50,736 nucleotides of DNA, taken from Candidatus Hadarchaeota archaeon (GTDB lineage: Archaea > Hadarchaeota > Hadarchaeia > Hadarchaeales > JAWBSP01). The notes under the pieces were generated by a model. That model saw only the letters and a list, made by a program, of their open reading frames with translations, ran no database searches and was not told the origin of the DNA. Within the stretch, counting starts at the first letter, position 1. Each line of letters begins with the position of its first letter. Shown here piece by piece: positions 34,144 through 49,989 of the stretch. The stretch spans positions 1 through 50,736 of the forward strand of contig CAYYWO010000007.1 in assembly GCA_964474885.1 (NCBI GenBank), read 5' to 3'. Both the position numbers and the translations under genes were made by a program.

Positions 34144-34351
34144 AGTCCCCCCTCAGTGGGTGGGCACGGCGAGGAAAATGTGTTTCGAGAAAACAATTTG
34201 AAGCCACTTTTTAATCCACGAAAAAATCTTCCACTGACTAAAAACTGAAGTGTAAAAAATTGCCACTCCTTCTTTTTAACCCCCATTTTTAACCCCCTTA
34301 ATTCTTCTCCTCTTTTAGAATGTGGATAGAGAGAGTTCGCTAGAAGTAAAA
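34144..34351. promoter_or_regulatory. AT-rich intergenic region upstream of the mcm-gins-cdc6-polD operon; promoter and candidate replication origin
   Basis: Non-coding with poly-A/T tracts; tandem 12-mer TTTTTAACCCCC at 34273-34284 and 34286-34297; TTCCACTGA near 34229. Confidence 0.35.
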
Positions 34352-35635: not shown

Positions 35636-36852
35636 TTGATGACCCTCAACAGCTCTTCGTAGTCCACATTTATCTCCCTTATCTCCCCAGTCACCTTGAC
35701 GACTTCTTCAGGGTCCTTCATCACGCTTCCCGTTGCGATACAGACTACGATTTCATCTCTCCCGATCGCCCCGAGGTCCAGCATTTTCTTGAGGCCTGCA
35801 ATGGTGGATGCGCTTGCTGGCTCGACCCCGATGCCCTCGGTCCTCGCTAGGAGCTTCTGAGCTTCCACTATCTCCTCGTCGGTGACGCTCTCGGCAGTCC
35901 CTCCAGACTTCCTGATGGCCCTGATAGCCTTGGGACCGTTGACGGGGTTGCCTATCCGGATAGCGGTGGCGATGGTTTCCGGGTTTGGTACCGGGATGAA
36001 GGTGTCTAGTCCCTTTTTAATAGCTTCCACGATGGGCTTGGCCCCCTCGGCTTGGATGCCGATCATCTGTGGTGTGCGGTCGAGGAGCCCAGTTTTCTGG
36101 AACTCCATGAACCCCTTGTAAATTGCCCAGATGTTGGCACAGTTCCCCATGGGGACAATTATCTTATCTGGGACCTCGTACCCGAGCTGCTCCGCCACCT
36201 CAAAGCCAATAGTTTTCTGTCCCTGGGGCCTGAAGGGATTCACCGAGTTCAGCAAGTAAACATTAGAGTTTTCCCTGCACAGCTTTGTCACTAGGGAGAG
36301 GGCCTGATCGAAGTTCCCCCTTATCCCGATCACCTCTGCCCCGTGGATCATCGCTTGGGCGAGCTTACCCAAGGCTACTTTCCCCTTGGGCAAGAGGACA
36401 AGGCACCTGAGGCCTGCCTTTGCGGCGTAAGCGGCTAGGGAGGCGGAGGTGTTCCCAGTCGAGGCGCAGGCCACCACCTTAACACCGTACTCGATGGCCT
36501 TGGTGACCCCTACCGTCATGCCCCTATCCTTGAAGGAACCCGTCGGATTGGCACCCTCGTACTTGACGTACAGCTCCCTGACCCCCAGCTCGGACGCCAG
36601 CCTTTCGCACCTGTACAAGGGGGTCCCGCCTTCCCCCAGTGTCACGGCCTTCGCCGGATCCCGGACGGGGAGGAAGCAGCTGTACCTCCAGACGGACAGG
36701 GGCCCTTTGAGGTTTTTCGCGAGTTCCTTTACCTTCTCCAGATCCAGCTCCACCTCCAGCAACCCGCCGCACCTGGGGCAGGTGTATAGTCTTTCGGAGG
36801 GATCGAATTTTGCCCCGCATTCGAAACACTGGTACCAGAACTCAGCCATCAT
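35632..36852 (-). CDS. thrC: Threonine synthase (with N-terminal Zn ribbon)
   Basis: CFECG...CPRCGG, NPTGSFKDRG, CASTGNTSAS, GKLAQA and EPASA. Start set to the ATG at 36852. Confidence 0.93.
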   Translation of the reverse strand: MMAEFWYQCFECGAKFDPSERLYTCPRCGGLLEVELDLEKVKELAKNLKGPLSVWRYSCFLPVRDPAKAVTLGEGGTPLYRCERLASELGVRELYVKYEGANPTGSFKDRGMTVGVTKAIEYGVKVVACASTGNTSASLAAYAAKAGLRCLVLLPKGKVALGKLAQAMIHGAEVIGIRGNFDQALSLVTKLCRENSNVYLLNSVNPFRPQGQKTIGFEVAEQLGYEVPDKIIVPMGNCANIWAIYKGFMEFQKTGLLDRTPQMIGIQAEGAKPIVEAIKKGLDTFIPVPNPETIATAIRIGNPVNGPKAIRAIRKSGGTAESVTDEEIVEAQKLLARTEGIGVEPASASTIAGLKKMLDLGAIGRDEIVVCIATGSVMKDPEEVVKVTGEIREINVDYEELLRVIK

Positions 36853-37007
36853 TCTGTCCGGGGGAGGAATAAAGACCACCGGTCGACCTGCAAATTCTTG
36901 CGGGCGCCAGCACTCAGCGAGAACTGGTATAGCGGGAAGGTGATGCCCAGCTATTCCGGATGGGTTGAGGAGAGATCGTGGGGGGTGAGTTTTACGATTT
37001 CGTGAAA

Positions 37008-37580
37008 TCAGCTCACACGAAAGAGCCTCCTCAGTACAGGAGCCAGTTCTCGGGCAAATCTGAAGATGTAATTGGGGTGAGGAAGAAAGAAGATCTCTGT
37101 CCTCTTCGCTTCAAGCTTCGTCGGGTACCTAACAGATCTTGGTTGTTCGAGATTGAATATCTCGCAGATCGAGGCCGAGGCCATTCTGCCCATGGCGACT
37201 ATTCTCTTGGGCTGGAGAAGCGAGATCTCCGCTCTCAGGTGCTTGACGCACTTTTTTCTCATTTCTTTTAGGGAATCTCTGTTTGGGGGCCTGCACTTGA
37301 CGGCTGCGGTGATGAAAACGCCCTGCTTCCTAAGAGCCTCCAAAACTCGCTTGTCTCCCTTTATGCCCAAAATGAACTTGAGCGACAGCCGTAGCCGGTC
37401 GAAGGTGTCCAGGTTGTATAGCGAGCCTGCTTTTCGACCCGGAGGGGGAGATTCCCCGATCGCTAAGGTATGGGTTTTTTCCGGAAGCCAAGCATACACC
37501 CGATGGCTTATGAAGGGCTTGTCCACGAAGCGGCAGAGATGGCAAGTGGCAATTCTGCGCCTTAATGTATTCATTATCAT
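37008..37580 (-). CDS. Uracil-DNA glycosylase superfamily protein (Fe-S type)
   Basis: CHLC, IGESPP, AVKCRPP...C and PHP. Start moved to 37580 because the longer ORF runs through tRNA-Thr. Confidence 0.78.
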   Translation of the reverse strand: MIMNTLRRRIATCHLCRFVDKPFISHRVYAWLPEKTHTLAIGESPPPGRKAGSLYNLDTFDRLRLSLKFILGIKGDKRVLEALRKQGVFITAAVKCRPPNRDSLKEMRKKCVKHLRAEISLLQPKRIVAMGRMASASICEIFNLEQPRSVRYPTKLEAKRTEIFFLPHPNYIFRFARELAPVLRRLFRVS

Positions 37581-37597
37581 TTTCCGCAAGAATGGAT

Positions 37598-37672
37598 GCC
37601 CCGGTAGCTCAGCCTGGTTAGAGCGCACGCTTGGTAAGCGTGAGGTCGCGGGTTCAACTCCCGCCCGGGGCT
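37598..37672 (+). tRNA. tRNA-Thr(GGU)
   Basis: GCCCCGG/CCGGGGC acceptor, CACGC-TTGGTAA-GCGTG anticodon arm, GCGGG-TTCAACT-CCCGC T arm. Confidence 0.96.
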
Positions 37673-37679
37673 TCAAGAC

Positions 37680-37919
37680 CTATTCCTCGGCTTCGGATAA
37701 GGCGATCAGAGTCTCCGTGTGCAAGACTCCAGGCATCTGTTCTAGAGTCTCGTAGATGTTTTTCTTTAGTTCCTCCTGATCCTTCCCCTCTATCACGAGG
37801 ACAGCATCATATCTGCCAAAAACGGAATTTGCCAGCTTCACGCCTTTTACTCTTCTGGCCCTAACGATTTCCTCGGAGGTACCGGGCTTGGCTCTGACTA
37901 AGACGAACGCCCGTATCAT
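37680..37919 (-). CDS. Stand-alone Lrp/AsnC ligand-binding (RAM) domain protein
   Basis: RAFVLV...PG, V.GRYD.V..IE, GV..TETLI; no HTH. Confidence 0.88.
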   Translation of the reverse strand: MIRAFVLVRAKPGTSEEIVRARRVKGVKLANSVFGRYDAVLVIEGKDQEELKKNIYETLEQMPGVLHTETLIALSEAEE

Positions 37920-38150
37920 CTAAAGGGTGATGGCAGTTTCAGTGTGAATCACGTGGGGTATCTTCGGGATGACCCTGTACACCGTTTCTTGGATGGACTT
38001 CAGGCTGCCCGCCTCGATCACAGCGATCACGTCGAACCTGCCCCAGACGGAATCTGCGCAGACTATCCCCGGGATCTTTTTTATCTCCTTCACAACTTCT
38101 TCTGAGGTCCCGGGCTTGGTCGTGATTAAAATGTACGCTTTCATCGGCAT
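37920..38150 (-). CDS. Stand-alone Lrp/AsnC ligand-binding (RAM) domain protein, paralog of the neighbour
   Basis: KAYILI...PGTSEEVV, VWGRFDVIAVIE, HTET; shares KPGTSEE and HTET with the neighbour. Confidence 0.88.
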   Translation of the reverse strand: MPMKAYILITTKPGTSEEVVKEIKKIPGIVCADSVWGRFDVIAVIEAGSLKSIQETVYRVIPKIPHVIHTETAITL

Positions 38151-38174
38151 TCAAAAGTTCGATTATTAATATGT

Positions 38175-39635
38175 TTAGGAGTCAAGGTAGAGGTAAAACT
38201 CGAAGGGGGTGGGCCTCAGGGCCTGCTCCCAGCACTCTTCCCTTTTCAGCTCGACATACTTCTCGATCAGATCCTTGGTGAAGATACCATCTGCCAGGAG
38301 GTAATTGTGGTCCGATTCCAGTTCGTCCAAAGCCTCGGAGAGGGAAGCGGGCAGCTCGCCGATTCCCAGTTGCCGCCTCCTCTCCTTGGGCAGGAGGTAT
38401 ATGTTCTCGTCCACCGGGTCGCCGGGATCTATCTTCTTCCTTATGCCATCAAGACCGGCAGCCAGCTGGGCCGCAAAGCACAGGTAGGGGTTGGATGCGG
38501 GGTCGGGGGCCCTGAACTCGATTCTCTTCGTATCGTGGGCCCTCTTGGTCCCTCTATAGTAAACGGGCACGCGGACGGTCGCAGACCTGTTGCTTCTGCT
38601 CCACGCTATGTAGACAGGGGCTTCATAGCCGGGCACTAGCCTCTTGTAGGAGTTGGTCGTGGGGGCCACGAGTGCAGCCAGGGATCGGCAGTGCTCCAAT
38701 ACCCCTCCGATGTAGTACCTCCCGATCTGGCTCAGCTCGGCGTAGCCGTCACCGGGGTCATAGAAGGCATTCTTCTTTCCCTTCCACAAGCTCTGGTGGA
38801 CATGCATGCCGGAAGCATTGTCACCGAAGATGGGTTTGGGCATGAAGGTGGCTATCATGTTTCTCATGTAGGCGACCATCTTGGCGACGAACTTGTAGGA
38901 TACAACCCCGTCGGCCATCCTGGTGAGGGGGGCGCACCCCATGTCTATCTCAACTTGCCCCGCCGTTGCCACCTCGTGGTGGTGGGCCTCGATCTTAATG
39001 CCGAAAAAGTCCTCCAGGATGCGGGATACCTCCGACCGGTAATCCTGGAGGGTATCCTCGGGAGGGGCGGGATAATATCCCTCCTTGAATCTGATGGGGA
39101 AGTTTATCCCACCCGGGCTCCATATCGCCTCCTTGGAGTCTATTCTGTATCCGCTACTCGCCCAGGCATCACGCGTGGCGAGCATGTTGGGTATCAGCTC
39201 GACCCTGTCGAACACGAAGAATTCGATCTCGGCCCCCCAGTAGGAGCAGTTGAATCCAGCCTTCTTCGCAGCCTCCTCCGCCTTCTGGGCGACGTACCGC
39301 GAATCCCTAGTGAACCTGGGACCCCCAAACGAGTGATATATGTCCGCCATCATCCTGGCTGTTTTGTGCTCGCCAGAGGTCCAGGGGAGGATCGCGAAGC
39401 TTTCCGGGGCAGGGACCAGCACCATGTCAGACTCGTGGATCTCGACGAACCCCTTTATGGAGGAGCCATCCAGTTTTCCAAAGCCGGATTTGAAGCTATC
39501 CACATCGAACTCGTGAGCAGGTATCGTCACATGCTGGAGCCTCCCCCTCAGGTCCACAAACTGCAGGTCTATCCACCTGATCTTCTCCCTTTCTATAGTC
39601 GCGATGACTCTTTCAACTTCCGTGGCATTGCTCAT
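38175..39635 (-). CDS. glnA: Glutamine synthetase type I
   Basis: DGSSIKGF..I.ESDM, HHHEVATAGQ.E, TFMPKP..GDN.SGMH.HQS, NSYKRLVPGYEAP and RIEFRAPD. Confidence 0.97.
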   Translation of the reverse strand: MSNATEVERVIATIEREKIRWIDLQFVDLRGRLQHVTIPAHEFDVDSFKSGFGKLDGSSIKGFVEIHESDMVLVPAPESFAILPWTSGEHKTARMMADIYHSFGGPRFTRDSRYVAQKAEEAAKKAGFNCSYWGAEIEFFVFDRVELIPNMLATRDAWASSGYRIDSKEAIWSPGGINFPIRFKEGYYPAPPEDTLQDYRSEVSRILEDFFGIKIEAHHHEVATAGQVEIDMGCAPLTRMADGVVSYKFVAKMVAYMRNMIATFMPKPIFGDNASGMHVHQSLWKGKKNAFYDPGDGYAELSQIGRYYIGGVLEHCRSLAALVAPTTNSYKRLVPGYEAPVYIAWSRSNRSATVRVPVYYRGTKRAHDTKRIEFRAPDPASNPYLCFAAQLAAGLDGIRKKIDPGDPVDENIYLLPKERRRQLGIGELPASLSEALDELESDHNYLLADGIFTKDLIEKYVELKREECWEQALRPTPFEFYLYLDS

Positions 39636-39716
39636 CGGAGTAGCGAATTCGAGAGTAAAAAAGCTTAATGTGAAAAATTATTGCTGAGTATTAACCTACT
39701 CTTCCGGGTTTAAGAC

Positions 39717-40661
39717 GTGAGACTGGAGGAGTATCTCGGCCGGTGCTCAAGGCTGGTGCGCCAGGTGATAGACCAAGTGCTACCCTCAGGTGCCGGAACC
39801 CTCCCGAGGGCGAGCAGACACCTCATCGAGGCAGGTGGGAAGATGCTCAGGCCCTGTCTCTGTTTGTCCTGCTGTGAGGCGGTCGGCGGGAAAATCACGG
39901 AGGACGTGCTCAAGGTGGCAGCAGCTCTGGAGCTGGTCCACACCTTCACGCTCGTCCACGACGATATAATGGACCACGCGGAGACCAGGAGGGGAGTACC
40001 CGCAGTCCACGTGAAGTGGGGAGAGCCGATAGCCCTCACGGTGGGAGATGCCCTCCTCCTCAAAGCCTTCAAGCTGCTATCAGAGGTACCCAACTCTCAG
40101 GCGATCATAGGGCTCATGGCGGAAGCAACGCTGCAGCTCTGTGAAGGCCAGATACTGGACATCGAGTTCTCAAAGAGGGAAACGGTGAGCGAGGGCGAAT
40201 ACCTGCAGATGATTGAGAGGAAAACCGGAGCTCTTTTCTCTGCCGCCACGAGGGCCGGTGCACTGATGGGCGGGGCACCTCCCGAGTTGGCGGGGGAGAT
40301 GGCAGAGTACGGGAGATTGGTAGGCATGGCGTTTCAGATAAGGGATGACGTGCTGGATCTGCTGGAGAAGCCCGAGTCCGACCTGAGGGAGGGGAAGAGG
40401 ACGCTCATGATCGTCAAAGCCATGGAAGACCTCCAGCTGCGGGAGAGGCTAAGAGATGCGCTTGGGAGGAGGGATCTATCTATTGAGGAAGCAAGAGAGA
40501 TCCAGAGGCTGCTGGTCGGTTCGGGCGCGTTCGATTACGCCATGGAAAAGGCCCGGGAACTTGCAGAACTGGCAAAGTCAAAACTAACAGGGCTCCCCCC
40601 GAGCCCGGCGAAGGATGTCCTGCTGGAGCTGGCGGACCTAGCGGTGACCAGAAACAGGTGA
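39717..40661 (+). CDS. idsA: Polyprenyl (geranylgeranyl) diphosphate synthase
   Basis: GGKMLRP, FTLVHDDIMD (FARM with F at -5, archaeal GGPPS type), RRG, GQ..D, KT and FQIRDDVLD. Confidence 0.9.
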   Translation: MRLEEYLGRCSRLVRQVIDQVLPSGAGTLPRASRHLIEAGGKMLRPCLCLSCCEAVGGKITEDVLKVAAALELVHTFTLVHDDIMDHAETRRGVPAVHVKWGEPIALTVGDALLLKAFKLLSEVPNSQAIIGLMAEATLQLCEGQILDIEFSKRETVSEGEYLQMIERKTGALFSAATRAGALMGGAPPELAGEMAEYGRLVGMAFQIRDDVLDLLEKPESDLREGKRTLMIVKAMEDLQLRERLRDALGRRDLSIEEAREIQRLLVGSGAFDYAMEKARELAELAKSKLTGLPPSPAKDVLLELADLAVTRNR

Positions 40662-40670
40662 AGCTTAATG
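40661..40670 (+). promoter_or_regulatory. Putative BRE/TATA box for a leaderless hyd operon transcript
   Basis: AAGCTTAATG centred about 28 bp upstream of the hydG ATG; the same decamer occurs at 39661-39670 in the glnA/idsA intergenic region. Confidence 0.4.
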
Positions 40671-40694
40671 GAGGGCAAAGGGACAATATTTTAG

Positions 40695-42224
40695 ATGTCC
40701 AGCTACCAGCCAATTGTCCAATGGATTGAAAACCTGCCACAGGGGCTGGGTGCATGGATGAAGGAAAGGTTGAGAGATGAAGATGACTACAGCAGGTGGC
40801 TGGAGGATGGCAGGGATTTCATAGATGAGGAAAAGATTTGGCGCTTGATAAAAGAGAACTCAGATCCCACCCGCAGTCAAGTCAGAGCAATCATCGACAA
40901 GGCCCTTTCCTCCAAGGAATGTTTAGAACCTGAGGAAACCGCCAAGTTGCTGAACATAAAGGATGAGCAGCTGTGGAAGGAAGTCTACGAGGCAGCAGGG
41001 GAGGTAAAAAAGGAAGTCTATGACAACAGAATCGTTACGTTTGCACCATTGTACTGTAGCGACTACTGCGTGAACAACTGTCTTTACTGTGCCTTCCGGA
41101 GAGAAAACCAGGTGGTCAGGAAGAGGCTCTCGATCGAGGAAGTAGAAAAAGAAGCCAGAGCTTTGGCGGCGGCAGGACACAAACGTTTGATAACCTCATA
41201 CGGTGAGCACCCGCTCTCTGATGCCGGCTATATTGCTGAAACCTTGAAGGCGATCTATCGGGTGAAGGTCAAAACGAGGTCGGGATGGGGAGAGATCCGG
41301 AGGGTCAACGTCAATGCAGCTCCAATGACGGTGGAGGAGCTCAAGATGCTGAAGCAGATAGGTATCGGTACTTTCCAGGTTTTCCAGGAAACCTACCACC
41401 ACGAAACCTACCGAGCGGTACACCCTGCTGACACCATCAAGGGCAGTTATCACTGGAGGCTGTATTGCATGCACAGGGCACTTGAGGCAGGGGTAGATGA
41501 TGTGGGGATCGGTGTCCTCCTTGGTCTCTACGACTGGAGATTCGAGGTGATGGGGCTCTTGTTCCACTCAAGGGAGCTAGAAGAAAAGTTTGGGGTGGGA
41601 CCACACACCATCTCCTTCCCAAGACTCCGCCCCGCCCTGAACACACCCTTCGTGCAACGGGCCGAATATAAGGTGTCTGACTCGGACTTCAAGAAGTTCA
41701 TAGCGGTTGTCAGGCTTTCGGTTCCCTATACAGGTATGATATTAACGGCTAGGGAGCCTGAACACGTGAGGAGAGAGGTTCTCCCCCTAGGGATCACCCA
41801 AACGGACTTCGGTTCCAGAATCGGGATAGGCTCCTACACGAGTGGCAATAGTGATCAGTTGCCCGATCGCCAGCAGTTCCTGCTGGGGGACACGAGGGAC
41901 TTGGAGGAAGGGATAAGGTGGCTGGCGAGCCAGGGATACATCGTGTCCTTCTGCACTGCTGGGTATAGGTGCGGAAGGACGGGTCAGCACATAATGACAC
42001 TCCTGAAGAGCGGGAAGGAGAAGGTGTTTTGCAAGCTGAATGCTGTGCTGACGTACAAGGAATACTTGGAGGACTTTGCGGGCGAAGAAACGAGGAGACT
42101 GGGCGAGAAAGTCATCGAGAAGGAAATAGAGGAGATCCGGGAACTCGTTCCGCCCGAGGTCTTCAAAAGATTTATGGAGTATTTAAACCGCATAAGCAAG
42201 GGTGAGCGGGACCTCTACTTCTGA
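40695..42224 (+). CDS. hydG: [FeFe]-hydrogenase maturase HydG
   Basis: FAPLY.S.YCVNNCLYC radical-SAM motif, FQETY, GPHTISFPR (dangler His) and auxiliary-cluster motif CTAGYRC-x19-C; C-terminal GERDLYF. Confidence 0.95.
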   Translation: MSSYQPIVQWIENLPQGLGAWMKERLRDEDDYSRWLEDGRDFIDEEKIWRLIKENSDPTRSQVRAIIDKALSSKECLEPEETAKLLNIKDEQLWKEVYEAAGEVKKEVYDNRIVTFAPLYCSDYCVNNCLYCAFRRENQVVRKRLSIEEVEKEARALAAAGHKRLITSYGEHPLSDAGYIAETLKAIYRVKVKTRSGWGEIRRVNVNAAPMTVEELKMLKQIGIGTFQVFQETYHHETYRAVHPADTIKGSYHWRLYCMHRALEAGVDDVGIGVLLGLYDWRFEVMGLLFHSRELEEKFGVGPHTISFPRLRPALNTPFVQRAEYKVSDSDFKKFIAVVRLSVPYTGMILTAREPEHVRREVLPLGITQTDFGSRIGIGSYTSGNSDQLPDRQQFLLGDTRDLEEGIRWLASQGYIVSFCTAGYRCGRTGQHIMTLLKSGKEKVFCKLNAVLTYKEYLEDFAGEETRRLGEKVIEKEIEEIRELVPPEVFKRFMEYLNRISKGERDLYF

Positions 42225-42489
42225 GGATCTCAGGAGATATCTGGAGGATCTCGCTCGCGTCGTAGCGGTGAAGTTCAGGGTCAAGGTTTGGTTCGCGGAG
42301 ATATTGGGCAGGAGGTGGTCGTACATCGCGGGTGAAAGGGAGGATACCTTCCTCCCTCCGGTCAAGGTTCAGCTGACGGAGAAGATGGGTGTAGTGCTGA
42401 TTGGTGTACACTCCCACGGGCAGGTGGAGGAGGTAAAGAATTTCATCCTCTCCCAGCTCAGAACCGCAGGTTTTAAAGATGCCAGCTAA
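42202..42489 (+). CDS. Uncharacterised 95-aa protein inside the hyd operon
   Basis: Overlaps the hydG end and stops 9 bp before hydC; contains EILGRRWSYIAG; no Cys. Confidence 0.7.
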   Translation: MSGTSTSEDLRRYLEDLARVVAVKFRVKVWFAEILGRRWSYIAGEREDTFLPPVKVQLTEKMGVVLIGVHSHGQVEEVKNFILSQLRTAGFKDAS

Positions 42490-42498
42490 ACACCGTTT

Positions 42499-42963
42499 AT
42501 GGAGTCGGAACTGGAAGATCAGATAAGCAGGATGGTTGAACAAATGGGCAGGCAGGCCTTGCTTCCCTGCCTGCATCTCATCCAAGAGAAGCTGGGATGC
42601 GTCACGCCGGAAGCGGCAACCCTCGTCGCGAAAAAGCTGGGCCTGTCAAGGGGAGAGGTTTTCAGCGTGGCATCCTTTTACGGGATGTTTAGCAGGGAGA
42701 GGGAGGGAAAATTTGTCATTCGCGTTTGTGTCTCCCTCCCCTGCTATCTGAAGGGGGCGAGGGAGATACTCCAGTACCTGCAGGGAGAACTCGGGGTCAA
42801 ACCGGGTCAGACCACGCCAGACGGGCTTTTCACTCTCAAGGAGACCTCATGTTTGGGCTTCTGTGACGGGGCCCCTGCCGTCATGGTGAACGACAAAACG
42901 TATGGCAGGGTGACTGTCGACAAAATGAAGGAAATCCTGCAGCAGTGCAGGGAGAAGGCATGA
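42499..42963 (+). CDS. hydC: [FeFe]-hydrogenase gamma subunit (NuoE-like [2Fe-2S])
   Basis: VASFY, CVSLPC...CLGFC..AP; ATGA overlap with hydB. Confidence 0.92.
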   Translation: MESELEDQISRMVEQMGRQALLPCLHLIQEKLGCVTPEAATLVAKKLGLSRGEVFSVASFYGMFSREREGKFVIRVCVSLPCYLKGAREILQYLQGELGVKPGQTTPDGLFTLKETSCLGFCDGAPAVMVNDKTYGRVTVDKMKEILQQCREKA

Positions 42964-44225
42964 AGATCCTCCTCAAACGTATAGAGAAGAAGGATTACAG
43001 GGGAACTCTAGAAGAATACCTGCAGGAGGGGGGTTACGAGGCACTGAGGAAGACGCTAGAGATGGAGCCGTCCGGAGTAATTGCGGAGGTCAAGCGATCT
43101 GGACTCGTGGGAAGAGGGGGTGCGGGCTTCCCCACCGGCTTGAAGTGGGAGTTAACTGCGAAGGTTCCAGACTCCCCCAAATACGTGGTCTGCAATGCCG
43201 ATGAGGGCGAGCCAGGGACCTTCAAAGATCGGATCATAATGGAGCGAGATCCCCACCTGCTCTTGGAGGGGATGATGATCTGCGGTTACGCGATTGGGGC
43301 TAGACAGGGCTACATTTATGTCCGGGGTGAGTACACCGAGAGCTACAGGCGGCTGGAAGCGGCGATCCAGGAAGCCCGGGAGAGGCACCTCTTGGGTGAG
43401 AAGATCCAGGGAACGGATTTCTCGTTCGACATTTACCTCTACAAAGGAGCTGGGGCTTACGTGTGCGGCGAGGAGACTGCACTCCTAGATTCACTGGAAG
43501 GTAAGAGGGGAGAGGCAAGGTTGAGGCCGCCATACCCGGCTACTTCGGGGTTCAGGGGCAAGCCTACCGTGGTGAACAATGTGGAAACTCTCTCGTGCAT
43601 CCCAGCTATAATTCTTAACGGAGGGGAGTGGTACTCCAAGATAGGCTCGGAGGGCAGTCCCGGAACTAAACTCTACTGTCTTTCAGGGGATGTCAGAAAT
43701 CCGGGCGTCTATGAACTACCCACGGACGTAACGCTCGAAGAACTTGTGAGCGAGTATGGCAGGGGGGTAGAAGGAGGGGCGAAGGCAGCCTTAACCGGGG
43801 GAATCTCGGGCGGGCTCCTAACTCCCGAACAATTTAAGGTAACTCTTGACTACAAGAGCATGCTCAAAGCGGGAACTGGCTTGGGTTCAGGCGCGATCAT
43901 CATGTTGAATCAGAGGAGGTGCATGGTGGATGTAGCGCTCAGGTGTCTCGAGTTCTTTGAGCATGAGTCGTGTGGGAAGTGTGCCCCCTGCAGGGAGGGG
44001 ACGAAGAGGGCAAGGGAATTGCTTCAGAAGATACGCAGAGGAAACGGGGACTCTGCCAGCCTGGAACTCCTGCTGGAGCTGCAAAGGGTGATGTACGACA
44101 CCTGTATCTGTGGTCTCGGTCAGAGCGCCCTCAATGTCACCAAAGCCTGCATCGAGAGGTTCAAGGGAGAGTTCGAAGAGCACCTCAGGGGGAGGTGCGT
44201 GGTAGGGGTGTGCGGACATGACTGA
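42960..44225 (+). CDS. hydB: [FeFe]-hydrogenase beta subunit (NuoF-like FMN/NADH diaphorase), short form
   Basis: GRGGAGFPTG.KW, NADEGEPGTFKDR, GAGAYVCGEETAL, NNVET, ESCGKCAPCREG...CGLG. Start reset to the ATG at 42960 (421 aa). Confidence 0.93.
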   Translation: MKILLKRIEKKDYRGTLEEYLQEGGYEALRKTLEMEPSGVIAEVKRSGLVGRGGAGFPTGLKWELTAKVPDSPKYVVCNADEGEPGTFKDRIIMERDPHLLLEGMMICGYAIGARQGYIYVRGEYTESYRRLEAAIQEARERHLLGEKIQGTDFSFDIYLYKGAGAYVCGEETALLDSLEGKRGEARLRPPYPATSGFRGKPTVVNNVETLSCIPAIILNGGEWYSKIGSEGSPGTKLYCLSGDVRNPGVYELPTDVTLEELVSEYGRGVEGGAKAALTGGISGGLLTPEQFKVTLDYKSMLKAGTGLGSGAIIMLNQRRCMVDVALRCLEFFEHESCGKCAPCREGTKRARELLQKIRRGNGDSASLELLLELQRVMYDTCICGLGQSALNVTKACIERFKGEFEEHLRGRCVVGVCGHD

Positions 44226-45945
44226 GCTGGTCAAGTTAACAATAGACGGTTATGAGGTTGAGGTACCAGCGGGCACCACCATCCTGGAGGCCGCAAAGAA
44301 GCTGAACATAAAGATCCCCACCCTCTGTTACAGGGAGGGGCTCGAACCTTACGGTGCTTGCCGGGTGTGCGTTGTGGAAATCGAGGGACGACCGAGACTG
44401 GAGCCTGCATGTGCTACACCGGTGGCACCTGGGATGAAGGTGAAGACGAGGTCTGCTAGAGTAAGGCGTGCGAGGCGCATGATCCTGGAACTCCTCCTGA
44501 GCAATGGGCATCAAGATTGCACCACATGTGAGAAGGCAGAAGACTGTGAGCTGAGGCAACTAGCGTATGAGCTTGGGGTGAGGGAGATAAGGTTCGAGGG
44601 TGAGAGGTACAACTACCCGATAGACACCTCCTCACCTTCAATAGTTTTTGATCCGAACCGCTGCATTCTCTGCGGCCGTTGCGTGAGGACATGCCGGGAG
44701 GTCCAGTCGGTTGAAGCCATCAAGTTGACCGACAGAGGGAGGAACACACGGGTGATGACGTTCTTCGATTGGGGCCTGGGAAATGTTGAGTGCACGGCCT
44801 GCGGCCAGTGTGTTCTAGCCTGTCCAACAGGTGCCTTAAGGGAGAGGAACGATATTGAGGAGGTTTGGAAGGCCCTGGAGGATCCTGACAAATTTGTGGT
44901 GGTACAGACGGCACCGGCGATCAGAGCGGCACTGGGTGAGGAGTTCAATCTGCCTCCAGGCACCTCTGTCACTGGAAAGATGGCGGCGGCTCTCAGGAGG
45001 CTGGGTTTCGACCGGGTCTTCGACACACAGTTCGGAGCGGACTTAACCATCGTGGAGGAGGCCCACGAGTTGATAGAGAGAATTCAGAAGGGAGGGAAGC
45101 TCCCCATGACCACCTCCTGCTCACCGGCGTGGGTGAAGTACTTTGAGCACTTTTTCCCAGAAGTTCTCGAGCACATGTCGACATGCAAATCCCCCCAGCA
45201 GATGTTTGGGGCGGTTGCGAAGACCTACTATGCTGAAAAATTGGGGATAAAGCCCGAAGACATGGTGGTGGTTTCGATCATGCCGTGCACGGCGAAGAAG
45301 TTCGAGGCAAAGCGTCCCGAGATGAAGGCCTCGGGTGTTTACGATGTTGACGTGGTGCTGACCACAAGGGAGTTCGCAAGGATGGTGAAAGAGGCCGGCA
45401 TTGATTTCGCCAGCCTTCCAGAGGAGGAGTTCGACGAGCCTCTGGGGATCTCCACTGGAGCGGCAGTCATCTTCGGCGTGACGGGCGGAGTTATGGAGGC
45501 TGCTCTGCGAACGGCGTACGAGATAGTCACGGGAAAGCCTTTGGAGAAGGTCGAGTTCAAGCAGGTTAGGGGTTTTGAGGGGATAAGGACTGCGTCAATC
45601 GACTTCAACGGCACTCAGGTGCGTGTTGCAGTTGCCCATGGGTTGGCCAACGCCCGGGTGCTGATGGAGGAGGTGAGGGACGGCAGATCCCCCTATCACT
45701 TCATCGAGGTCATGGCATGCCCGGGAGGCTGCTTGGGAGGGGGTGGGCAGCCCATTCCAACCGACATGGAGATCAGGAAGAAGAGGGCGGCCTGCCTGTA
45801 CTCGGAGGATGAGAGGAAGGTGGTGAGGAAGTCGCACGAAAATCCCGCCATAAAGAAACTCTATGAGGAGTACTTAGGAAGGCCGGGAAGTGAGAAGGCA
45901 CATCACCTCTTGCACACCACTTACACCTCCCGGGGAAGATACTGA
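44218..45945 (+). CDS. hydA: [FeFe]-hydrogenase catalytic subunit (group A, M3-type architecture)
   Basis: [2Fe-2S] domain, HQDCTTC-x5-C, two CxxCxxCxxxC; H-cluster motifs TSCSPAW, MPCTAKKFE and EVMACPGGCLGGGGQP; fused small-subunit tail SHENP...LLHT. Confidence 0.97.
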   Translation: MTELVKLTIDGYEVEVPAGTTILEAAKKLNIKIPTLCYREGLEPYGACRVCVVEIEGRPRLEPACATPVAPGMKVKTRSARVRRARRMILELLLSNGHQDCTTCEKAEDCELRQLAYELGVREIRFEGERYNYPIDTSSPSIVFDPNRCILCGRCVRTCREVQSVEAIKLTDRGRNTRVMTFFDWGLGNVECTACGQCVLACPTGALRERNDIEEVWKALEDPDKFVVVQTAPAIRAALGEEFNLPPGTSVTGKMAAALRRLGFDRVFDTQFGADLTIVEEAHELIERIQKGGKLPMTTSCSPAWVKYFEHFFPEVLEHMSTCKSPQQMFGAVAKTYYAEKLGIKPEDMVVVSIMPCTAKKFEAKRPEMKASGVYDVDVVLTTREFARMVKEAGIDFASLPEEEFDEPLGISTGAAVIFGVTGGVMEAALRTAYEIVTGKPLEKVEFKQVRGFEGIRTASIDFNGTQVRVAVAHGLANARVLMEEVRDGRSPYHFIEVMACPGGCLGGGGQPIPTDMEIRKKRAACLYSEDERKVVRKSHENPAIKKLYEEYLGRPGSEKAHHLLHTTYTSRGRY

Positions 45946-45948
45946 GTT

Positions 45949-46944
45949 TTGCCCTTTTTACACCACATCCTTCGCGTCCTGAGAAAACAGGATCTGAGCA
46001 AACTGAGCAAAGTCGCTAGTTGGGTCAGGGATAGGCACTGTGGCAGGGTCGTCTTCATCAGGGGGCTGCTGGAGTTCTCGAACTACTGTTGTCGCAGCTG
46101 TTTGTACTGCGGCCTCCGCAGGGAGAACAGGGACCTCCCCCGCTACCGGATGTCACCCGAGGAGATCTTGGAAGCGGTTGACAGGATGGCCGAGTGCGGG
46201 GTGAAAACAGTGGTGCTCCAGTCGGGGGATGACTTAGGGTACCCGGTGGAAGAACTGGCTCGAACCATCCGGCAGATCAAGGAGAGGTATCCTGACATGG
46301 CGGTTACTCTTTCCATCGGGGAGAGGTCAATAGAGGACTATAGAGCTTTAAGACAAGCGGGGGCGGACAGGTTCCTGCTAAAACACGAGACGGCCAACCC
46401 CGAGCTCTACCACGAAATGCATCCAGGGCAGTCCTTCATGCACAGGCTGAGGCTCCTGTTATACCTGCGGAGGTTAGGGTACCAGATTGGGGCAGGCTGC
46501 ATAGTTGGCCTGCCTGGCCAGACCTTAAAAGATTTGGCCGCTGATGTCAGACTCATGTACCTACTCGACGTGGACATGGCGGGGATTGGACCTTTCGTGC
46601 CCCAAAAGAACACCCCTCTCGGCAGCCACCCGCCTGGGAGCAAGGAACTCACCCTTTCCGTCCTGGCCTTGACCCGGATACTCACCAAAACGGTTCTGCT
46701 ACCCGCGACCACAGCCCTTGCTACCCTCGATCCCGTTGAGGGACATGTGGCGGGATTGAGGGCAGGATGTAACGTTATCATGGTCAATTTTACCCCCGAG
46801 AGGTACCGCCAGCACTACAGGATTTATGACAACAAGCTGAGGGTCACTTTGAGCAGGGCGGAAGAGGCCGTGAAGGAAGCAGGGCTAAGTATTTTATGGG
46901 ATAGGGGGGATACCTTCAGATGCTCCAAGCACCGAGGGGCTTAA
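45949..46944 (+). CDS. hydE: [FeFe]-hydrogenase maturase HydE
   Basis: RGLLEFSNYC..SCLYC, VLQSG, LKHET, GIGPF.P, PATTAL, G.NV.M.N.TP and YRIYDNK; lies between hydA and hydF. Confidence 0.92.
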   Translation: MPFLHHILRVLRKQDLSKLSKVASWVRDRHCGRVVFIRGLLEFSNYCCRSCLYCGLRRENRDLPRYRMSPEEILEAVDRMAECGVKTVVLQSGDDLGYPVEELARTIRQIKERYPDMAVTLSIGERSIEDYRALRQAGADRFLLKHETANPELYHEMHPGQSFMHRLRLLLYLRRLGYQIGAGCIVGLPGQTLKDLAADVRLMYLLDVDMAGIGPFVPQKNTPLGSHPPGSKELTLSVLALTRILTKTVLLPATTALATLDPVEGHVAGLRAGCNVIMVNFTPERYRQHYRIYDNKLRVTLSRAEEAVKEAGLSILWDRGDTFRCSKHRGA

Positions 46945-48137
46945 GATTGCACATAGCGATTCTGGGGAGGAGGAATGTGGGGAAGTCATCAATCCTTAAC
47001 GCTATTACCCAGCAACAGGTGGCCATAGTCTCAAGTAAGCCCGGAACCACAACGGATCCCGTTGAAAAGCCCATGGAACTTCCTCCCATCGGTCCGGTTA
47101 TGTTCATCGACACAGCTGGTCTGGACGACGTGGGATCCCTGGGCAAGCTCAGGCTTGAGAAAACCCAGAAAGTCCTGGAAAGGGCAGATTTGGTCCTGCT
47201 CGTGACAGAGGCAAATGTCTGGGGGGAGTACGAGGAGAAGGTGTTGAGAGAAGTCAGGAAGAGGGGCATTCCCCTGCTGGTTCTGCTCAACAAGGTCGAC
47301 ATAGTCAAACCTTCCCCCGAAATAAGGCAGAAACTCCAGAAGGAGGGCGTACCGTTCGTGGAAACCTGTGCGGTCGGGAATGGTGGAGAAGTGGCGGCCA
47401 AGATCAAGCAGGCCATGCTGGGTCTCCTGCCGGAGGATTTCGTCAACCCGCCACCGATCATCTCAGATATCGTTAAACCCGGTGATCTCGTGACCTTCGT
47501 CATGCCGATTGATTTGGAGGCACCGAAAGGGAGACTCAAACTTCCACCCCAGCAGACCATGAGGGAGCTTCTCGATCAGCGTGAGCCAATGTGCTTGGTG
47601 GTCAACGAGAAGACCCTGAAGAAGGGCTTGGAGACCTCGAGTGTTAAGCCGAGGCTGGTGGTAACAGATACCTGTGTACTTAAAGAAGTGGTTGATCAAG
47701 TTCCCCCCGAAATTCCCGTGACAAGCTTCTCGATTCTCCTAGCGAAGGCCAAAGGAGACTTGAGGGAGTTCGTCGAGGGGATCAAGGTGTTGGACAGACT
47801 GAAACCCGGGGATAAGGTACTGATCGCTGAAGCATGCACGCACCACCCGATAGGGGATGACATGGCTAGGGTCAGAATTCCCAGACTTATAAACCAGAAG
47901 GTGGGTGGACCAGTTCAGTTTGATGTTTACTCTGGGCACGACTTCCCAGAGAATCTGGAAGAGTACAAGTTAGTGATCCACTGTGGGGCATGCATGATAA
48001 ATCGCAGGGAGCTGCTCTCGAGGATCCTCAAGTGCAGGGAGAAGGGCGTACCGATAACCAACTACAGCATGGTGGTCGCATACCTGCACGGTTGCTTGGA
48101 CAGGGTTCTCCAACCCCTCCGTCAGCAGCTGGACTAG
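46920..48137 (+). CDS. hydF: [FeFe]-hydrogenase maturase GTPase HydF
   Basis: GRRNVGKSS, GTTTDPV, DTAG, NKVD, APKGRL and the CxH...HCGAC cluster motif (EACTHH / IHCGACM). Confidence 0.96.
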   Translation: MLQAPRGLRLHIAILGRRNVGKSSILNAITQQQVAIVSSKPGTTTDPVEKPMELPPIGPVMFIDTAGLDDVGSLGKLRLEKTQKVLERADLVLLVTEANVWGEYEEKVLREVRKRGIPLLVLLNKVDIVKPSPEIRQKLQKEGVPFVETCAVGNGGEVAAKIKQAMLGLLPEDFVNPPPIISDIVKPGDLVTFVMPIDLEAPKGRLKLPPQQTMRELLDQREPMCLVVNEKTLKKGLETSSVKPRLVVTDTCVLKEVVDQVPPEIPVTSFSILLAKAKGDLREFVEGIKVLDRLKPGDKVLIAEACTHHPIGDDMARVRIPRLINQKVGGPVQFDVYSGHDFPENLEEYKLVIHCGACMINRRELLSRILKCREKGVPITNYSMVVAYLHGCLDRVLQPLRQQLD

Positions 48138-49306
48138 AGTTGTCTCAACGAGACGTCTAGCAGTTTCCGGAAGGAGGCTAAGAATTCGTCAGGCAGCCTC
48201 GTCAGACCGACCTCCACGAATCCCTTGACGATCAGGGAAGTAGCTTCCTTTTCGGTCAGCCCCCTCGACATGAGGTACTCCACCTGCTCTCGCGCTATCT
48301 TGCCTATTGCTGCTTCGTGGGTCAGCTCTGCGCCCCTCTTCTTGGCTACGAGCTCGGGGATGGCGTGCACGGAGCAATCGGGCGAGAGCAGGAGCCCCAT
48401 GCATTCTACGTGTCCCCTGCAATCCTCGCAGTCCCCAACGATGCAGCTCCTAGACCAGACCTTCGCCCTGTCCTTAGCCACGACTCTTGTCAGGACTTCT
48501 CCCCGGCTCTCTTTACCTGAGAAGATTATCCTTCCCCCTAGGTCGAAGAGGGAATCCTCCTGTGCCAAGATGAGGTTGTTGAAGGTGACACTGGATCCGT
48601 CTCCCTCGCAGAAGGCCGTGGGATACATCTGAATGCTCTTAACGGGGAGCGCGCAGATGTAGTTGCTAACGAGGGAAGCACCCTCCTCCAACCTCGCGGC
48701 GGCCCTCGGTCTCGCATCGAACCCGGCCCCCCAATAATGGATCATGGTGAAGTTGAGTTTCGCATTTTTCTTGAGGTAAAACTCAGTCACCCCCACGTGC
48801 AGCCCCCGTTGTAGTCCCCGGTAGGCGGCACAGCCCGTCACTATCGTGGCCTCGGAGTCGGGCTCCATGACTATGATGTTGTGGACGTTTTGGTTCAGAC
48901 CCTCAGTCCCTATGAAGAAGCATGCCTGAAGGGGGAGGGGGACTTTCACCCCCTCCTTCACCCTTATGAATACTCCCCTGTCCTCGTTCAGGTACGTCCA
49001 AGCAGTATACTTGTCGGTTGCGGGATTGACCAGCTTCCAATAGTACGGTGCTAGATCGTGTCTCTTCCGCGCCTCCCTCATGTCCACTATCTCCACGGAA
49101 TCCCTCAGGGCTTCCCTGATGACCCGGCGGACCACGGAGTAGTCCACCTGCAAGTAGGTACCGGCCCTGCCCTCCTCTTGGATTCTCATGGGTGCCTCTC
49201 CGGCGGGTGTGCGGGAGCTCTCCCTGCCGTATGCCTCTAGGTCTATGTCCGGGCCGAACTGGGCGGGCTTTTGAAGGGCTTTTATGACTTCCTCCTTTTC
49301 GGGCAT
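48134..49306 (-). CDS. sufB: SufB/D-family Fe-S scaffold, SmsB type
   Basis: Beta-helix SufBD domain; GHVEC.GL, A.PEL, LTHEAAIGKI and YLMSRG. Start set to the ATG at 49306. Confidence 0.9.
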   Translation of the reverse strand: MPEKEEVIKALQKPAQFGPDIDLEAYGRESSRTPAGEAPMRIQEEGRAGTYLQVDYSVVRRVIREALRDSVEIVDMREARKRHDLAPYYWKLVNPATDKYTAWTYLNEDRGVFIRVKEGVKVPLPLQACFFIGTEGLNQNVHNIIVMEPDSEATIVTGCAAYRGLQRGLHVGVTEFYLKKNAKLNFTMIHYWGAGFDARPRAAARLEEGASLVSNYICALPVKSIQMYPTAFCEGDGSSVTFNNLILAQEDSLFDLGGRIIFSGKESRGEVLTRVVAKDRAKVWSRSCIVGDCEDCRGHVECMGLLLSPDCSVHAIPELVAKKRGAELTHEAAIGKIAREQVEYLMSRGLTEKEATSLIVKGFVEVGLTRLPDEFLASFRKLLDVSLRQL

Positions 49307-49989
49307 GATCGGCACCACTGGTACCCCTTCTCCATGATGGTCGAAACGATTCGTTCGGGATCACCCGAACAAACGATTTCCCCATCCATCATGACGTGGG
49401 CGACCTTTGCACGGACGTACCTCAGGATGTAACCCAGATGGGTAACGATGAGGCAGGAGCACTTTCCGGTCAGCCTGTCGATCACCCTTCCCAGAACCCT
49501 CAGGCTCTCCACATCCACGCCCGAGTCCGGCTCGTCCAGCAGGGCTAGTTTGGGCTTCTGAGCTAGAACCTGGAGGAGCTCCGACTTCTTGAGCTCCCCT
49601 CCGGAGAAACCCAAGTTCAGCTCACGCTCTAGAAATTCAAGGGGCAATCCCACCTCCGCTAGGAGCCTCTGGGTCTCTCCACCAACCAGCTCGAGCAGCT
49701 TGCCGAATTTGACTCCTCTCAGCTCGGGCGGGTTCTGAAAGGCGACGGCCATGCCCAGCCTCGCACGCTCATGTATCGGCAGCTGGGTTATGTCCCTGCC
49801 CTCGAAGAGTATCCTCCCCCCAACAATCTTGTAGGGGGAGAAACCTAGGATCGTCTTTATCAGACTCGTCTTCCCACAGCCATTGGGCCCAAGGAGGACA
49901 TGGGTTTCCCCCTCCCCTATCTCAAGGCAGACATCCCTTAGAACGATTTTATTCTCGATTTTGACGGTCAGGTGCTCTACCTTCAGCAT
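49282..49989 (-). CDS. sufC: SufC-family ABC ATPase, SmsC type
   Basis: GPNGCGKT, FQNP, GFSGGE, LDEPDSG.D; C-terminal C...CxxC (IVCSG...WCRSC) typical of SmsC. Confidence 0.92.
   Translation of the reverse strand: MLKVEHLTVKIENKIVLRDVCLEIGEGETHVLLGPNGCGKTSLIKTILGFSPYKIVGGRILFEGRDITQLPIHERARLGMAVAFQNPPELRGVKFGKLLELVGGETQRLLAEVGLPLEFLERELNLGFSGGELKKSELLQVLAQKPKLALLDEPDSGVDVESLRVLGRVIDRLTGKCSCLIVTHLGYILRYVRAKVAHVMMDGEIVCSGDPERIVSTIMEKGYQWCRSCPKRRKS

Follow-up and report, generated by a model that had tools for sequence, protein, structure and literature searches.

A probably mosaic, NADH-linked [FeFe]-hydrogenase locus of bacterial ancestry in the chromosome of a vent archaeon

Gene content and motifs of the locus

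We analysed a contig of 50,736 nucleotides (CAYYWO010000007.1; this whole stretch is hereafter the window) from the genome assembly of a Candidatus Hadarchaeota archaeon (GCA_964474885.1), and describe here the [FeFe]-hydrogenase locus that it carries together with the genes for the maturases HydE, HydF and HydG. In the comparisons below the host genome is G000 and the window is G000:C7; other G numbers denote sampled genomes, L numbers the comparison loci, 160 of which were fetched, and X1 to X5 public sequencing runs. Between 40695 and 48137 lie seven open reading frames (ORFs), all on the + strand, in the order hydG, orf95, hydC, hydB, hydA, hydE and hydF, and a profile search placed each of the six named proteins above the curated NCBIfam cut-offs. 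An earlier interpretation made from the letters of the DNA alone (the sequence-only reading) had called a complete hydG-orf-hydCBA-hydE-hydF operon at these positions, and that call stands. So does its description of overlapping or nearly abutting genes: the spacing from the upstream gene idsA onward is +33, -23, +9, -19, -8, +3 and -25 bp, that is, a correctly reported 33-bp spacer between idsA and hydG followed by intervals of -25 to +9 bp within the operon. Scans for sigma-70 promoters and terminators, with a consensus that does not cover archaeal promoters, gave 3 hits against 4.0 in shuffled sequence and 8 against 8.7, respectively.

The textbook H-cluster motifs of the catalytic subunit are TSCCPxW (L1), MPCxxKxxE (L2) and ExMxCxxGCxxGG (L3), and the canonical spacing of the auxiliary-cluster cysteines in HydG is CX2CX22C. 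The window HydA (44218-45945) scores 929.8 against NF040763 (cut-off 765), a family that NCBIfam names 'NADH-dependent [FeFe] hydrogenase, group A6' and whose HydDB counterpart is A3, and 353.6 bits against PF02906 (cut-off 22.1). It consists of a [2Fe-2S] domain, a His-ligated [4Fe-4S] domain, a 2x[4Fe-4S] domain, the H-domain and a small-subunit-like tail, and its best solved relatives are HydA1 of T. kivui (8a6t, E 4.5e-217) and of A. woodii (7q4v, E 1.2e-210). L2 (MPCTAKKFE) and L3 (EVMACPGGCLGGGG) are both present. L1 reads TSCSPAW; the TSCSP variant also occurs in A. woodii HydA1 (7q4v) and in 114 of 120 sequences made up of the closest homologues and the window HydA, by which measure it is the norm of its clade and probably not a lesion. 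The two partner genes lie directly upstream of hydA with overlapping ends. HydC (42499-42963) is a NuoE-like [2Fe-2S] subunit (PF01257, 164 bits; nuoE_fam, 146.6 against a cut-off of 142.4) with a motif of the Cx4Cx35Cx3C type starting at residue 77, and HydB (42945-44225) is a NuoF-like subunit for flavin mononucleotide (FMN) and NADH, reduced to its core (PF01512, PF10589 and SLBB; NuoF NF010120, 411.6 against 389).

The maturases are similarly well defined. HydG (40695-42224; TIGR03955, 456.5 bits against 312.15), the radical-S-adenosylmethionine (radical-SAM) maturase that converts tyrosine into the CO and CN ligands, carries its CX3CX2C motif as CVNNCLYC at residue 125. Its C-terminal auxiliary-cluster motif, at residues about 419-446, is of the form CX5CX19C (FCTAGYRCGRTG...C), which has the same total span as CX2CX22C with the middle Cys shifted by three residues. 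This spacing is shared by all of the 119 best HydG homologues, some of which come from cultured Thermoanaerobacter, Caldanaerobacter and Thermodesulfovibrio. Since it is common to all of them, cultured hydrogen producers among them, sequence comparison identifies it as the mark of a large HydG subfamily, a subtype and not a defect; the HydGs of L013, L018, L134, L154 and L194 are of the canonical type (FCTACYRxGRTG) and not FCTAGYRCGRTG. The second radical-SAM maturase, HydE (45949-46944; TIGR03956, 339.6 against 254.6), has the motif CCRSCLYC at residue 47, and the GTPase scaffold maturase HydF (46920-48137; TIGR03918, 509.8 against 325.55) combines HydF_dimer and HydF_tetramer domains with the motifs GRRNVGKS (P-loop), NKVD and CTH...HCGAC. 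The sequence-only reading had described intact H-cluster motifs in HydA and diagnostic motifs in each maturase. This is correct for L2, L3 and the radical-SAM and HydF motifs; HydA L1 and the HydG auxiliary motif depart from the textbook forms in the manner just described.

The seventh gene, orf95 (42202-42489), encodes a small conserved protein of no recognised family, whose homologues lie between hydG and hydE in relatives. We found homologues of about 95 amino acids in 4 of the 160 loci, all bacterial (L024:11611-11922, L124:4977-5324, L136:13686-14060 and L174:14829-15119), and each stands directly 3' of a hydG of the CX5CX19C type. Their alignment (A1) has 14 invariant columns, including a (V)WF.EI.G.RWSY block, and a confident AlphaFold2 model of the window protein has a predicted local distance difference test score of 85.5 and the order helix-4 strands-helix. 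Profile searches of NCBIfam (E up to 10), Pfam (E up to 1) and the PDB returned chance-level matches, and a Foldseek search of the PDB gave no match at E <=0.001. The best Foldseek matches, Rag/roadblock and PAS/GAF-like domains at E 0.027-0.1 and TMq 0.40-0.53, offer a roadblock/PAS-like resemblance of the modelled fold as a lead only. orf95 is a real, conserved and so far uncharacterised companion of this HydG subtype.

Chromosomal residence and bacterial ancestry

The surroundings of the operon are archaeal. The same contig encodes the PolD subunits DP2 (1497.7 bits) and DP1, Orc1/Cdc6, MCM, GatE and three tRNAs, which bears out the archaeal genes (PolD, MCM, GatE and tRNAs) that the sequence-only reading had listed. 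The stretch was found in five public runs from five studies, with no RNA run listed for it. In run X1, possibly the source of the assembly, Logan contigs span 38438-44471 (depth 30.2) and 44473-49695 (depth 36.6), and a 22-kb contig whose aligned part is 34000-38467 has a depth of 32.6. The idsA/hydG junction is bridged in X3 (40491-40978), and the hydF/sufB junction in X3 (47840-48478), X2 (47415-48223) and X5 (47990-48281). The tetranucleotide distance of the operon to the genome mean falls at the 39th percentile of 364 windows, and G+C content at third codon positions (GC3) is 0.66-0.70 in the hyd genes and 0.57-0.76 in host genes on the contig. The two junctions and the composition, the places where a false join had been expected to reveal itself, are thus bridged by independent contigs, evenly covered and matched to the host. 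The operon resides in an archaeal chromosome and the contig is not chimeric.

The ancestry of the genes is another matter. The host phylum is represented by 66 species genomes, of which 65 belong to a single order. We found full-length HydA in one, HydF above its cut-off in one and HydG above its cut-off in one, G000 in each case; both same-genus genomes are without HydA, HydF and HydG. In searches of GTDB representatives and Joint Genome Institute (JGI) metagenomes, identity to HydA is 66-70% for the best matches. No archaeon is named in the titled GTDB records among them, and the contigs from JGI come without organism names. The closest HydA in a collection of 5.8 billion proteins is 73% identical, and the named matches there are all bacterial, from Ratteibacteria, Omnitrophota and Atribacterota. 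In a HydA tree of 87 rows the window protein is sister to a 34-row Omnitrophota/Ratteibacteria clade, with a Shimodaira-Hasegawa-like approximate likelihood ratio test (SH-aLRT) value of 99, within a bacterial radiation. HydA, HydB, HydC, HydE and HydF are all closest (59-73%) to Omnitrophota-type bacterial clusters with the same six genes; for HydF the best full-length match (63%) comes from a Deltaproteobacteria metagenome-assembled genome (MAG), with Omnitrophica at 62%. By these relationships the hyd locus is foreign to its host and bacterial in ancestry.

Two of the fetched loci are best or near-best for all six proteins. L006, a contig of a Candidatus Omnitrophota MAG, and L124, a metagenome contig that also has orf95, carry the same six genes in a cluster at 59-70% and 51-69% identity to the window, respectively, and share with it a short HydB of the TK/GAGAY type and a CX5CX19C HydG. 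Their gene order is hydCBA-hydG-(orf95 or aldo-keto reductase)-hydE-hydF, whereas in the window hydG-orf95 stands upstream of hydC. L006 is flanked by bacterial genes (pheS, pheT, rsmI and PTS). Its GC content is 37.6% and that of L124 is 45.6%, compared to 52-56% for the individual hyd genes of the window, and this gap implies either that the transfer is old enough for the genes to have drifted to host composition or that the true donor is unsampled. An empty insertion site could not be demonstrated; in those other genomes that were checked for idsA and sufB, the two genes are on separate contigs or widely spaced.

HydG has a different set of relatives. The HydGs of L006 and L124 are 63% identical to that of the window, which has closer kin elsewhere: its best relatives are 68-79% identical and form with it a 15-row clade (SH-aLRT 100) whose sole named member is an 'Archaeoglobus sp.' MAG. 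The best HydA and HydF matches repeatedly lie on contigs of the same sizes (54,557; 80,647; 57,682; 157,823), from which we take it that they are on the same contigs. HydG matches of 62-66% from Omnitrophota-type clusters are also on contigs of those sizes, and the contig sizes of the 68-79% clade match none of those carrying the best HydA and HydF. With its HydG clade distinct from the affiliations of HydA and HydF, and with hydG-orf95 in a different position from that in the closest bacterial clusters, the operon looks mosaic, and the earlier claim that it was acquired as one unit is not upheld. The sequences suggest that it probably combines an Omnitrophota-type hydCBA-hydE-hydF block with a hydG-orf95 pair of another lineage.

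Proposed function and competing explanations

The type of enzyme can be predicted from HydB. At 426 amino acids, the window protein aligns to residues 131-540 of 599 in A. woodii, 163-569 of 630 in T. kivui and 160-565 of 626 in Thermotoga maritima HydB, so that some 130-160 N-terminal and 55-60 C-terminal residues of the bifurcating proteins are missing; it is without their N-terminal [2Fe-2S] and C-terminal 2x[4Fe-4S] domains, and its C-terminal extension is 0 amino acids. According to Losey 2020 (PMC7311640), and in the numbering of T. maritima HydB, bifurcating enzymes have Ala or Glu at residue 232, Met at residue 234, a Phe close to the FMN site, the sequence GGPSG within the SLBB region and the extra Fe-S domains. 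In non-bifurcating enzymes residue 232 is Thr or Ser, residue 234 is Lys, Ser or Ala, the Phe is replaced by Tyr, and both GGPSG and the extra Fe-S domains are missing. The window protein has T92/K94, GAGAY and GGISG where two bifurcating references have A/M, GAGAF and GGPSG. It is therefore in the NADH-only state at all four of these marks and bears no bifurcating one. The 126 HydB rows that we compared fall into two clean classes, 13 with TK, GAGAY, no GGPSG and no C-terminal extension (among them the window and its four closest loci, L124, L006, L005 and L007) and 113 with AM or SM, GAGAF and GGPSG. Since HydB lacks the extra Fe-S domains and carries T/K, GAGAY and a non-GGPSG sequence, the enzyme is likely non-bifurcating and independent of ferredoxin. 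By these signatures it is most likely an NADH-linked hydrogenase of the kind represented by Syntrophomonas wolfei Hyd1ABC. Like that enzyme and Syntrophus aciditrophicus HydAB, as presented in Losey 2017 and 2020, it has an alpha-beta-gamma composition and the same HydB signatures, a likeness drawn through published signatures and not through sequence alignment; its host is a vent archaeon, whereas theirs are syntrophic bacteria. The trimeric hydrogenase of the sequence-only reading is borne out in its HydABC subunit genes, and this generic description can be made more specific from the non-bifurcating, NADH-dependent marks of HydB.

Taken as a whole, the locus is likely a laterally acquired, ameliorated and apparently functional NADH-linked mosaic [FeFe]-hydrogenase of a vent archaeon. 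Under this proposal, HydA, HydB and HydC would form a heterotrimer in which the FMN carried by the NuoF-like HydB, presumed to be NADH-specific, serves as the site of NADH oxidation or NAD+ reduction. The [2Fe-2S] and [4Fe-4S] clusters of HydC, HydB and HydA would relay electrons to the H-cluster, at which protons and H2 would interconvert. HydG, HydE and HydF would build the [2Fe] subcluster, probably with the assistance of orf95, which travels with this HydG subtype. The hydCBA, hydE and hydF genes would derive from an Omnitrophota-like cluster, with hydG-orf95 joined to them in the archaeon itself or in a donor not yet sampled. Such an enzyme might evolve H2 only when the H2 pressure is low or the temperature high, or it might run in reverse and generate NADH from vent H2.

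Several observations weigh against this proposal. Current models of H-cluster maturation require the glycine-cleavage H-protein (PMC12501116; a requirement is also indicated in PMC12752695), which supplies the dithiomethylamine bridge. A search for this protein (PF01597) gave 0 matches in the 92%-complete G000, while 13 of 14 control genomes were positive. In the light of these models, the earlier description of the H-cluster biosynthesis as self-sufficient is therefore doubtful, even though the maturase set is complete in the classical HydEFG sense. The mosaic interpretation rests on one named sequence and on quick (SH-aLRT) trees. The Losey criteria for HydB come from few characterised enzymes, and the greatest similarity of HydA is to its counterparts in two bifurcating enzymes, those of T. 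kivui and A. woodii. Base 44472, inside hydA, is the sole point left unbridged among the contig pieces listed above, and the X1 contigs break there. Finally, 36 of the 60 contigs of G000, amounting to 198,611 of 1,183,335 bases, have a GC content below 0.5, many of them at 0.33-0.46, where the large contigs are at 0.52-0.57, which makes genome-wide presence calls uncertain.

Low-GC contigs of this kind, which may be foreign, are one reason to consider that the contig could be an assembly or binning chimera in which a bacterial hyd fragment was joined to archaeal DNA, as are the absence of the operon from same-genus genomes and the uniformly bacterial names of close HydA relatives. We regard this as extremely improbable given that both junctions are bridged by independently assembled contigs in other runs from other studies, that depth is even over archaeal core and operon, and that there is no compositional break; the closest bacterial clusters have 37-46% GC, against 52-56% for the individual hyd genes here. 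If the genes are resident, they might still have come in a single transfer of the whole seven-gene operon from one unsampled donor that already had this order. Tight packing (genes within the operon overlap by 8-25 bp or are no more than 9 bp apart) and uniform GC3 are compatible with such an event, as are the standing of L006 and L124 as best or near-best for all six proteins and the adjacency of orf95 homologues to hydG in L024, L124, L136 and L174. We consider it a possible but less favoured account; the HydG clade of 68-79% identity and maximal SH-aLRT, on contigs that match none bearing the best HydA and HydF, speaks for separate origins, as does the location of hydG-orf95 upstream of hydC here and between hydA and hydE in L006 and L124.

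The other alternative concerns what the enzyme does. It could be a classical electron-bifurcating or confurcating HydABC of group A3 that couples NADH and reduced ferredoxin to H2, as in T. maritima, A. woodii and T. kivui (7p5h, 7q4v and 8a6t). HydA aligns with the HydA of these enzymes from end to end in the same domain order, with the T. kivui and A. woodii HydA1 proteins as its best solved relatives; HydC is likewise NuoE-like, the HydB core is homologous and the hydC-hydB-hydA triplet is the same. The genome also holds a pyruvate:ferredoxin oxidoreductase-type gene (POR_N, 264 bits), and bifurcation is what Greening et al. 2024 predict for archaeal A3 enzymes (PMC11216029). Nonetheless, a 426-residue HydB without the N- and C-terminal Fe-S domains of the 599-630-residue bifurcating proteins, in which T/K replaces A/M, GAGAY replaces GAGAF and GGISG replaces GGPSG, is hard to reconcile with this function, and the NCBIfam label of the HydA family is 'NADH-dependent'. 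Bifurcation thus appears unlikely, and we retain the ferredoxin-independent, NADH-linked enzyme as our preferred interpretation.

Host, other archaea and neighbouring genes

The host comes from hydrothermal vents. Its genome, G000, comprises 1.18 Mb (1,183,335 bases) in 60 contigs, is 92% complete and 3.1% contaminated, and has a GC content of 52-57% in its main contigs, in a phylum of 0.6-2.2-Mb genomes that consists of one dominant order and one outlier. Biosynthetic and other genes on the window contig include argG, argH, glnA, thrC, glyA, idsA, dph2 (diphthamide synthesis) and phosphoglucomutase, and we agree with the sequence-only reading that the host is not a reduced symbiont; it is an archaeon with a small genome and of free-living type. 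A 1.3-Mb, 52% GC alkane oxidiser has been described in the Hadarchaeota, where Acr is confined to one family, and Persephonarchaea have been described as their sister group in the same class (PMC10811742). In our sample, homologues of the alpha subunit of methyl-coenzyme M reductase (MCR) occur in 5 of 66 phylum genomes, four of them in one family. Together with genome size, GC content, the single dominant order and the vent habitat, this profile makes Hadarchaeota the likely identity of the phylum. The low-GC contigs of the G000 bin include C11, C13, C16-C18, C24 and many small ones, and C27 (GC 0.40) has a second idsA-like gene; some of the bin may derive from a different organism.

No [NiFe]-hydrogenase large subunit (PF00374 or PF00346) was matched in the 92%-complete G000, while one is present in 57 of the 65 other phylum genomes, including both of the same genus. 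This suggests replacement, with the proviso that G000 is incomplete. In a phylum not previously linked to [FeFe]-hydrogenases, the [NiFe] enzyme might have been replaced by a mosaic, NADH-linked bacterial [FeFe]-hydrogenase that matures through HydG, HydE and HydF without the H-protein; we hold this full scenario to be quite doubtful. Maturation without the H-protein would imply another source of the dithiomethylamine bridge, possibly involving orf95. If Archaeoglobus-labelled genomes do carry the same HydG subtype, maturase genes may circulate among vent archaea.

How unusual the locus is can be judged from a sample of 401 archaeal species genomes, made up of the 66 from the host phylum and 335 more. 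The HydA domain was found in 25 and HydG in seven, and both only in G000; none of the 21 HydA-positive genomes outside the phylum is among the HydG-positive ones. The six other archaeal HydG carriers have hydE-hydG pairs alone; a search of five of them found no HydA and no HydF. These orphan pairs (L229-L234, from G282, G335, G181, G145, G392 and G206) belong to other phyla, and their HydGs are 45-49% identical to that of the window. None of 13 other archaeal HydA loci has hydG, hydE or hydF within about 8 kb, and the HydA proteins of five of these loci are 52-57% identical to the window HydA. A short HydB lies beside 6 of 12 other archaeal hydCBA loci and is thus not a trait unique to the window among archaea.

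Archaeal enzymes of this group are already in print. Greening et al. 2024 report 130 archaeal genomes with HydA, 44 group A3 enzymes, which occur in six DPANN phyla, Thermoplasmatota E2 and Lokiarchaeia, and six or more archaeal radiations of group A enzymes (PMC11216029). They find a full HydEFG set in 5 of the 130 genomes and a partial set in three, in line with the statement of the sequence-only reading that most archaeal genomes with HydA lack HydEFG, and proposed that archaea use an unidentified maturation route since most of them lack these genes. Their archaeal A3 enzymes, like that of the window, are encoded as hydC-hydB-hydA, have bacterial ancestry and were acquired independently of other archaeal lineages; the window differs in holding all three maturases within the hydrogenase operon. 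In the main text of that paper the terms Hadarchae*, Korarchae* and Archaeoglob* do not occur, and no lineage named there matches the profile of the host phylum. Our literature searches found no prior description of a Hadarchaeota [FeFe]-hydrogenase or of this operon. The host genome might nevertheless be one of the five with full HydEFG. With 44 archaeal A3 enzymes and five full-maturase archaeal genomes on record, the novelty is lower than had been claimed, and the locus adds incrementally to systems of a known kind.

Its value lies elsewhere. The locus provides a natural counter-example to archaea without HydEFG, in that a catalytic trimer and all three maturases lie in one operon on a verified archaeal chromosome. 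As a compact seven-gene construct, it could be used to ask whether archaeal hosts use canonical maturation, whether the short HydB functions with NADH only and whether maturation can do without the H-protein. The locus is also a record of transfer from bacteria to archaea in vent communities, since ameliorated to host composition. A further [FeFe]-type arrangement was seen in one genus of the phylum, where G023:C53 (L002), G015:C43 and G025:C53 each encode a fusion of 577-584 amino acids between a [NiFe] small-subunit domain (Oxidored_q6) and an [FeFe] H-domain. A scan of the neighbourhood, made for L002 only, showed the fusion followed by hydC- and hydB-like genes and adjoined by an FlpD-like gene. 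The architecture is that of the group F hybrid hydrogenase of Greening et al., in whose text this phylum is not listed.

The genes on either side of the operon appear native. Upstream, idsA (39717-40661, +; PF00348, 235.8 bits) encodes a short-chain isoprenyl diphosphate synthase whose best NCBIfam match, IdsA_Meth, reaches 299 bits and is under its cut-off; the protein is 43-53% identical to IdsA in 62 of the 65 other phylum genomes. Downstream, a sufB-like gene and sufC for Fe-S assembly (48134-49989, -; SUFBD_core and ABC_tran) converge on hydF with a 4-bp overlap. This SufB (48134-49318) is 40-52% identical to SufB in 32 phylum genomes outside the genus and 37-38% identical to that of the two same-genus genomes, and no second copy was found in G000, making it the only SufB of the genome. 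Both IdsA and SufB are nearer to other families of the phylum (40-53%) than to the same-genus copies (37-45%), which may have been replaced. We dropped the idea of a larger foreign island running from glnA through idsA to sufBC, since IdsA and SufB, at 40-53% identity to other phylum families, look native.

A short word, AAGCTTAAT(G), occurs at 39661-39669 and again at 40661-40669, exactly 1000 bp apart and just upstream of idsA and hydG, where the second copy overlaps the idsA stop codon. It has 4 occurrences genome-wide, and two matches in the window were reached in 1 of 100 shuffles. It is possibly promoter-like, or else a short direct repeat on either side of idsA; a role as a general promoter element was discarded because of those 4 occurrences.

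Further upstream, the window can be compared with a same-genus genome, G001. glyA, which encodes serine hydroxymethyltransferase (SHMT; 34352-35635), and thrC occur together in one G001 stretch at 75-80% identity, and a match to tRNA-Thr(GGT) (37598-37672, +) lies on the same G001 contig. The common gene order ends at this tRNA gene, beyond which none was found to be shared with G001. The longest reading of an ORF of the uracil-DNA-glycosylase family (37008-37676, -) crosses the tRNA gene on the opposite strand, which makes a start further inside the ORF probable. Over tRNA-Thr the depth in run X5 is very high (981), as expected for sequence common to many organisms.

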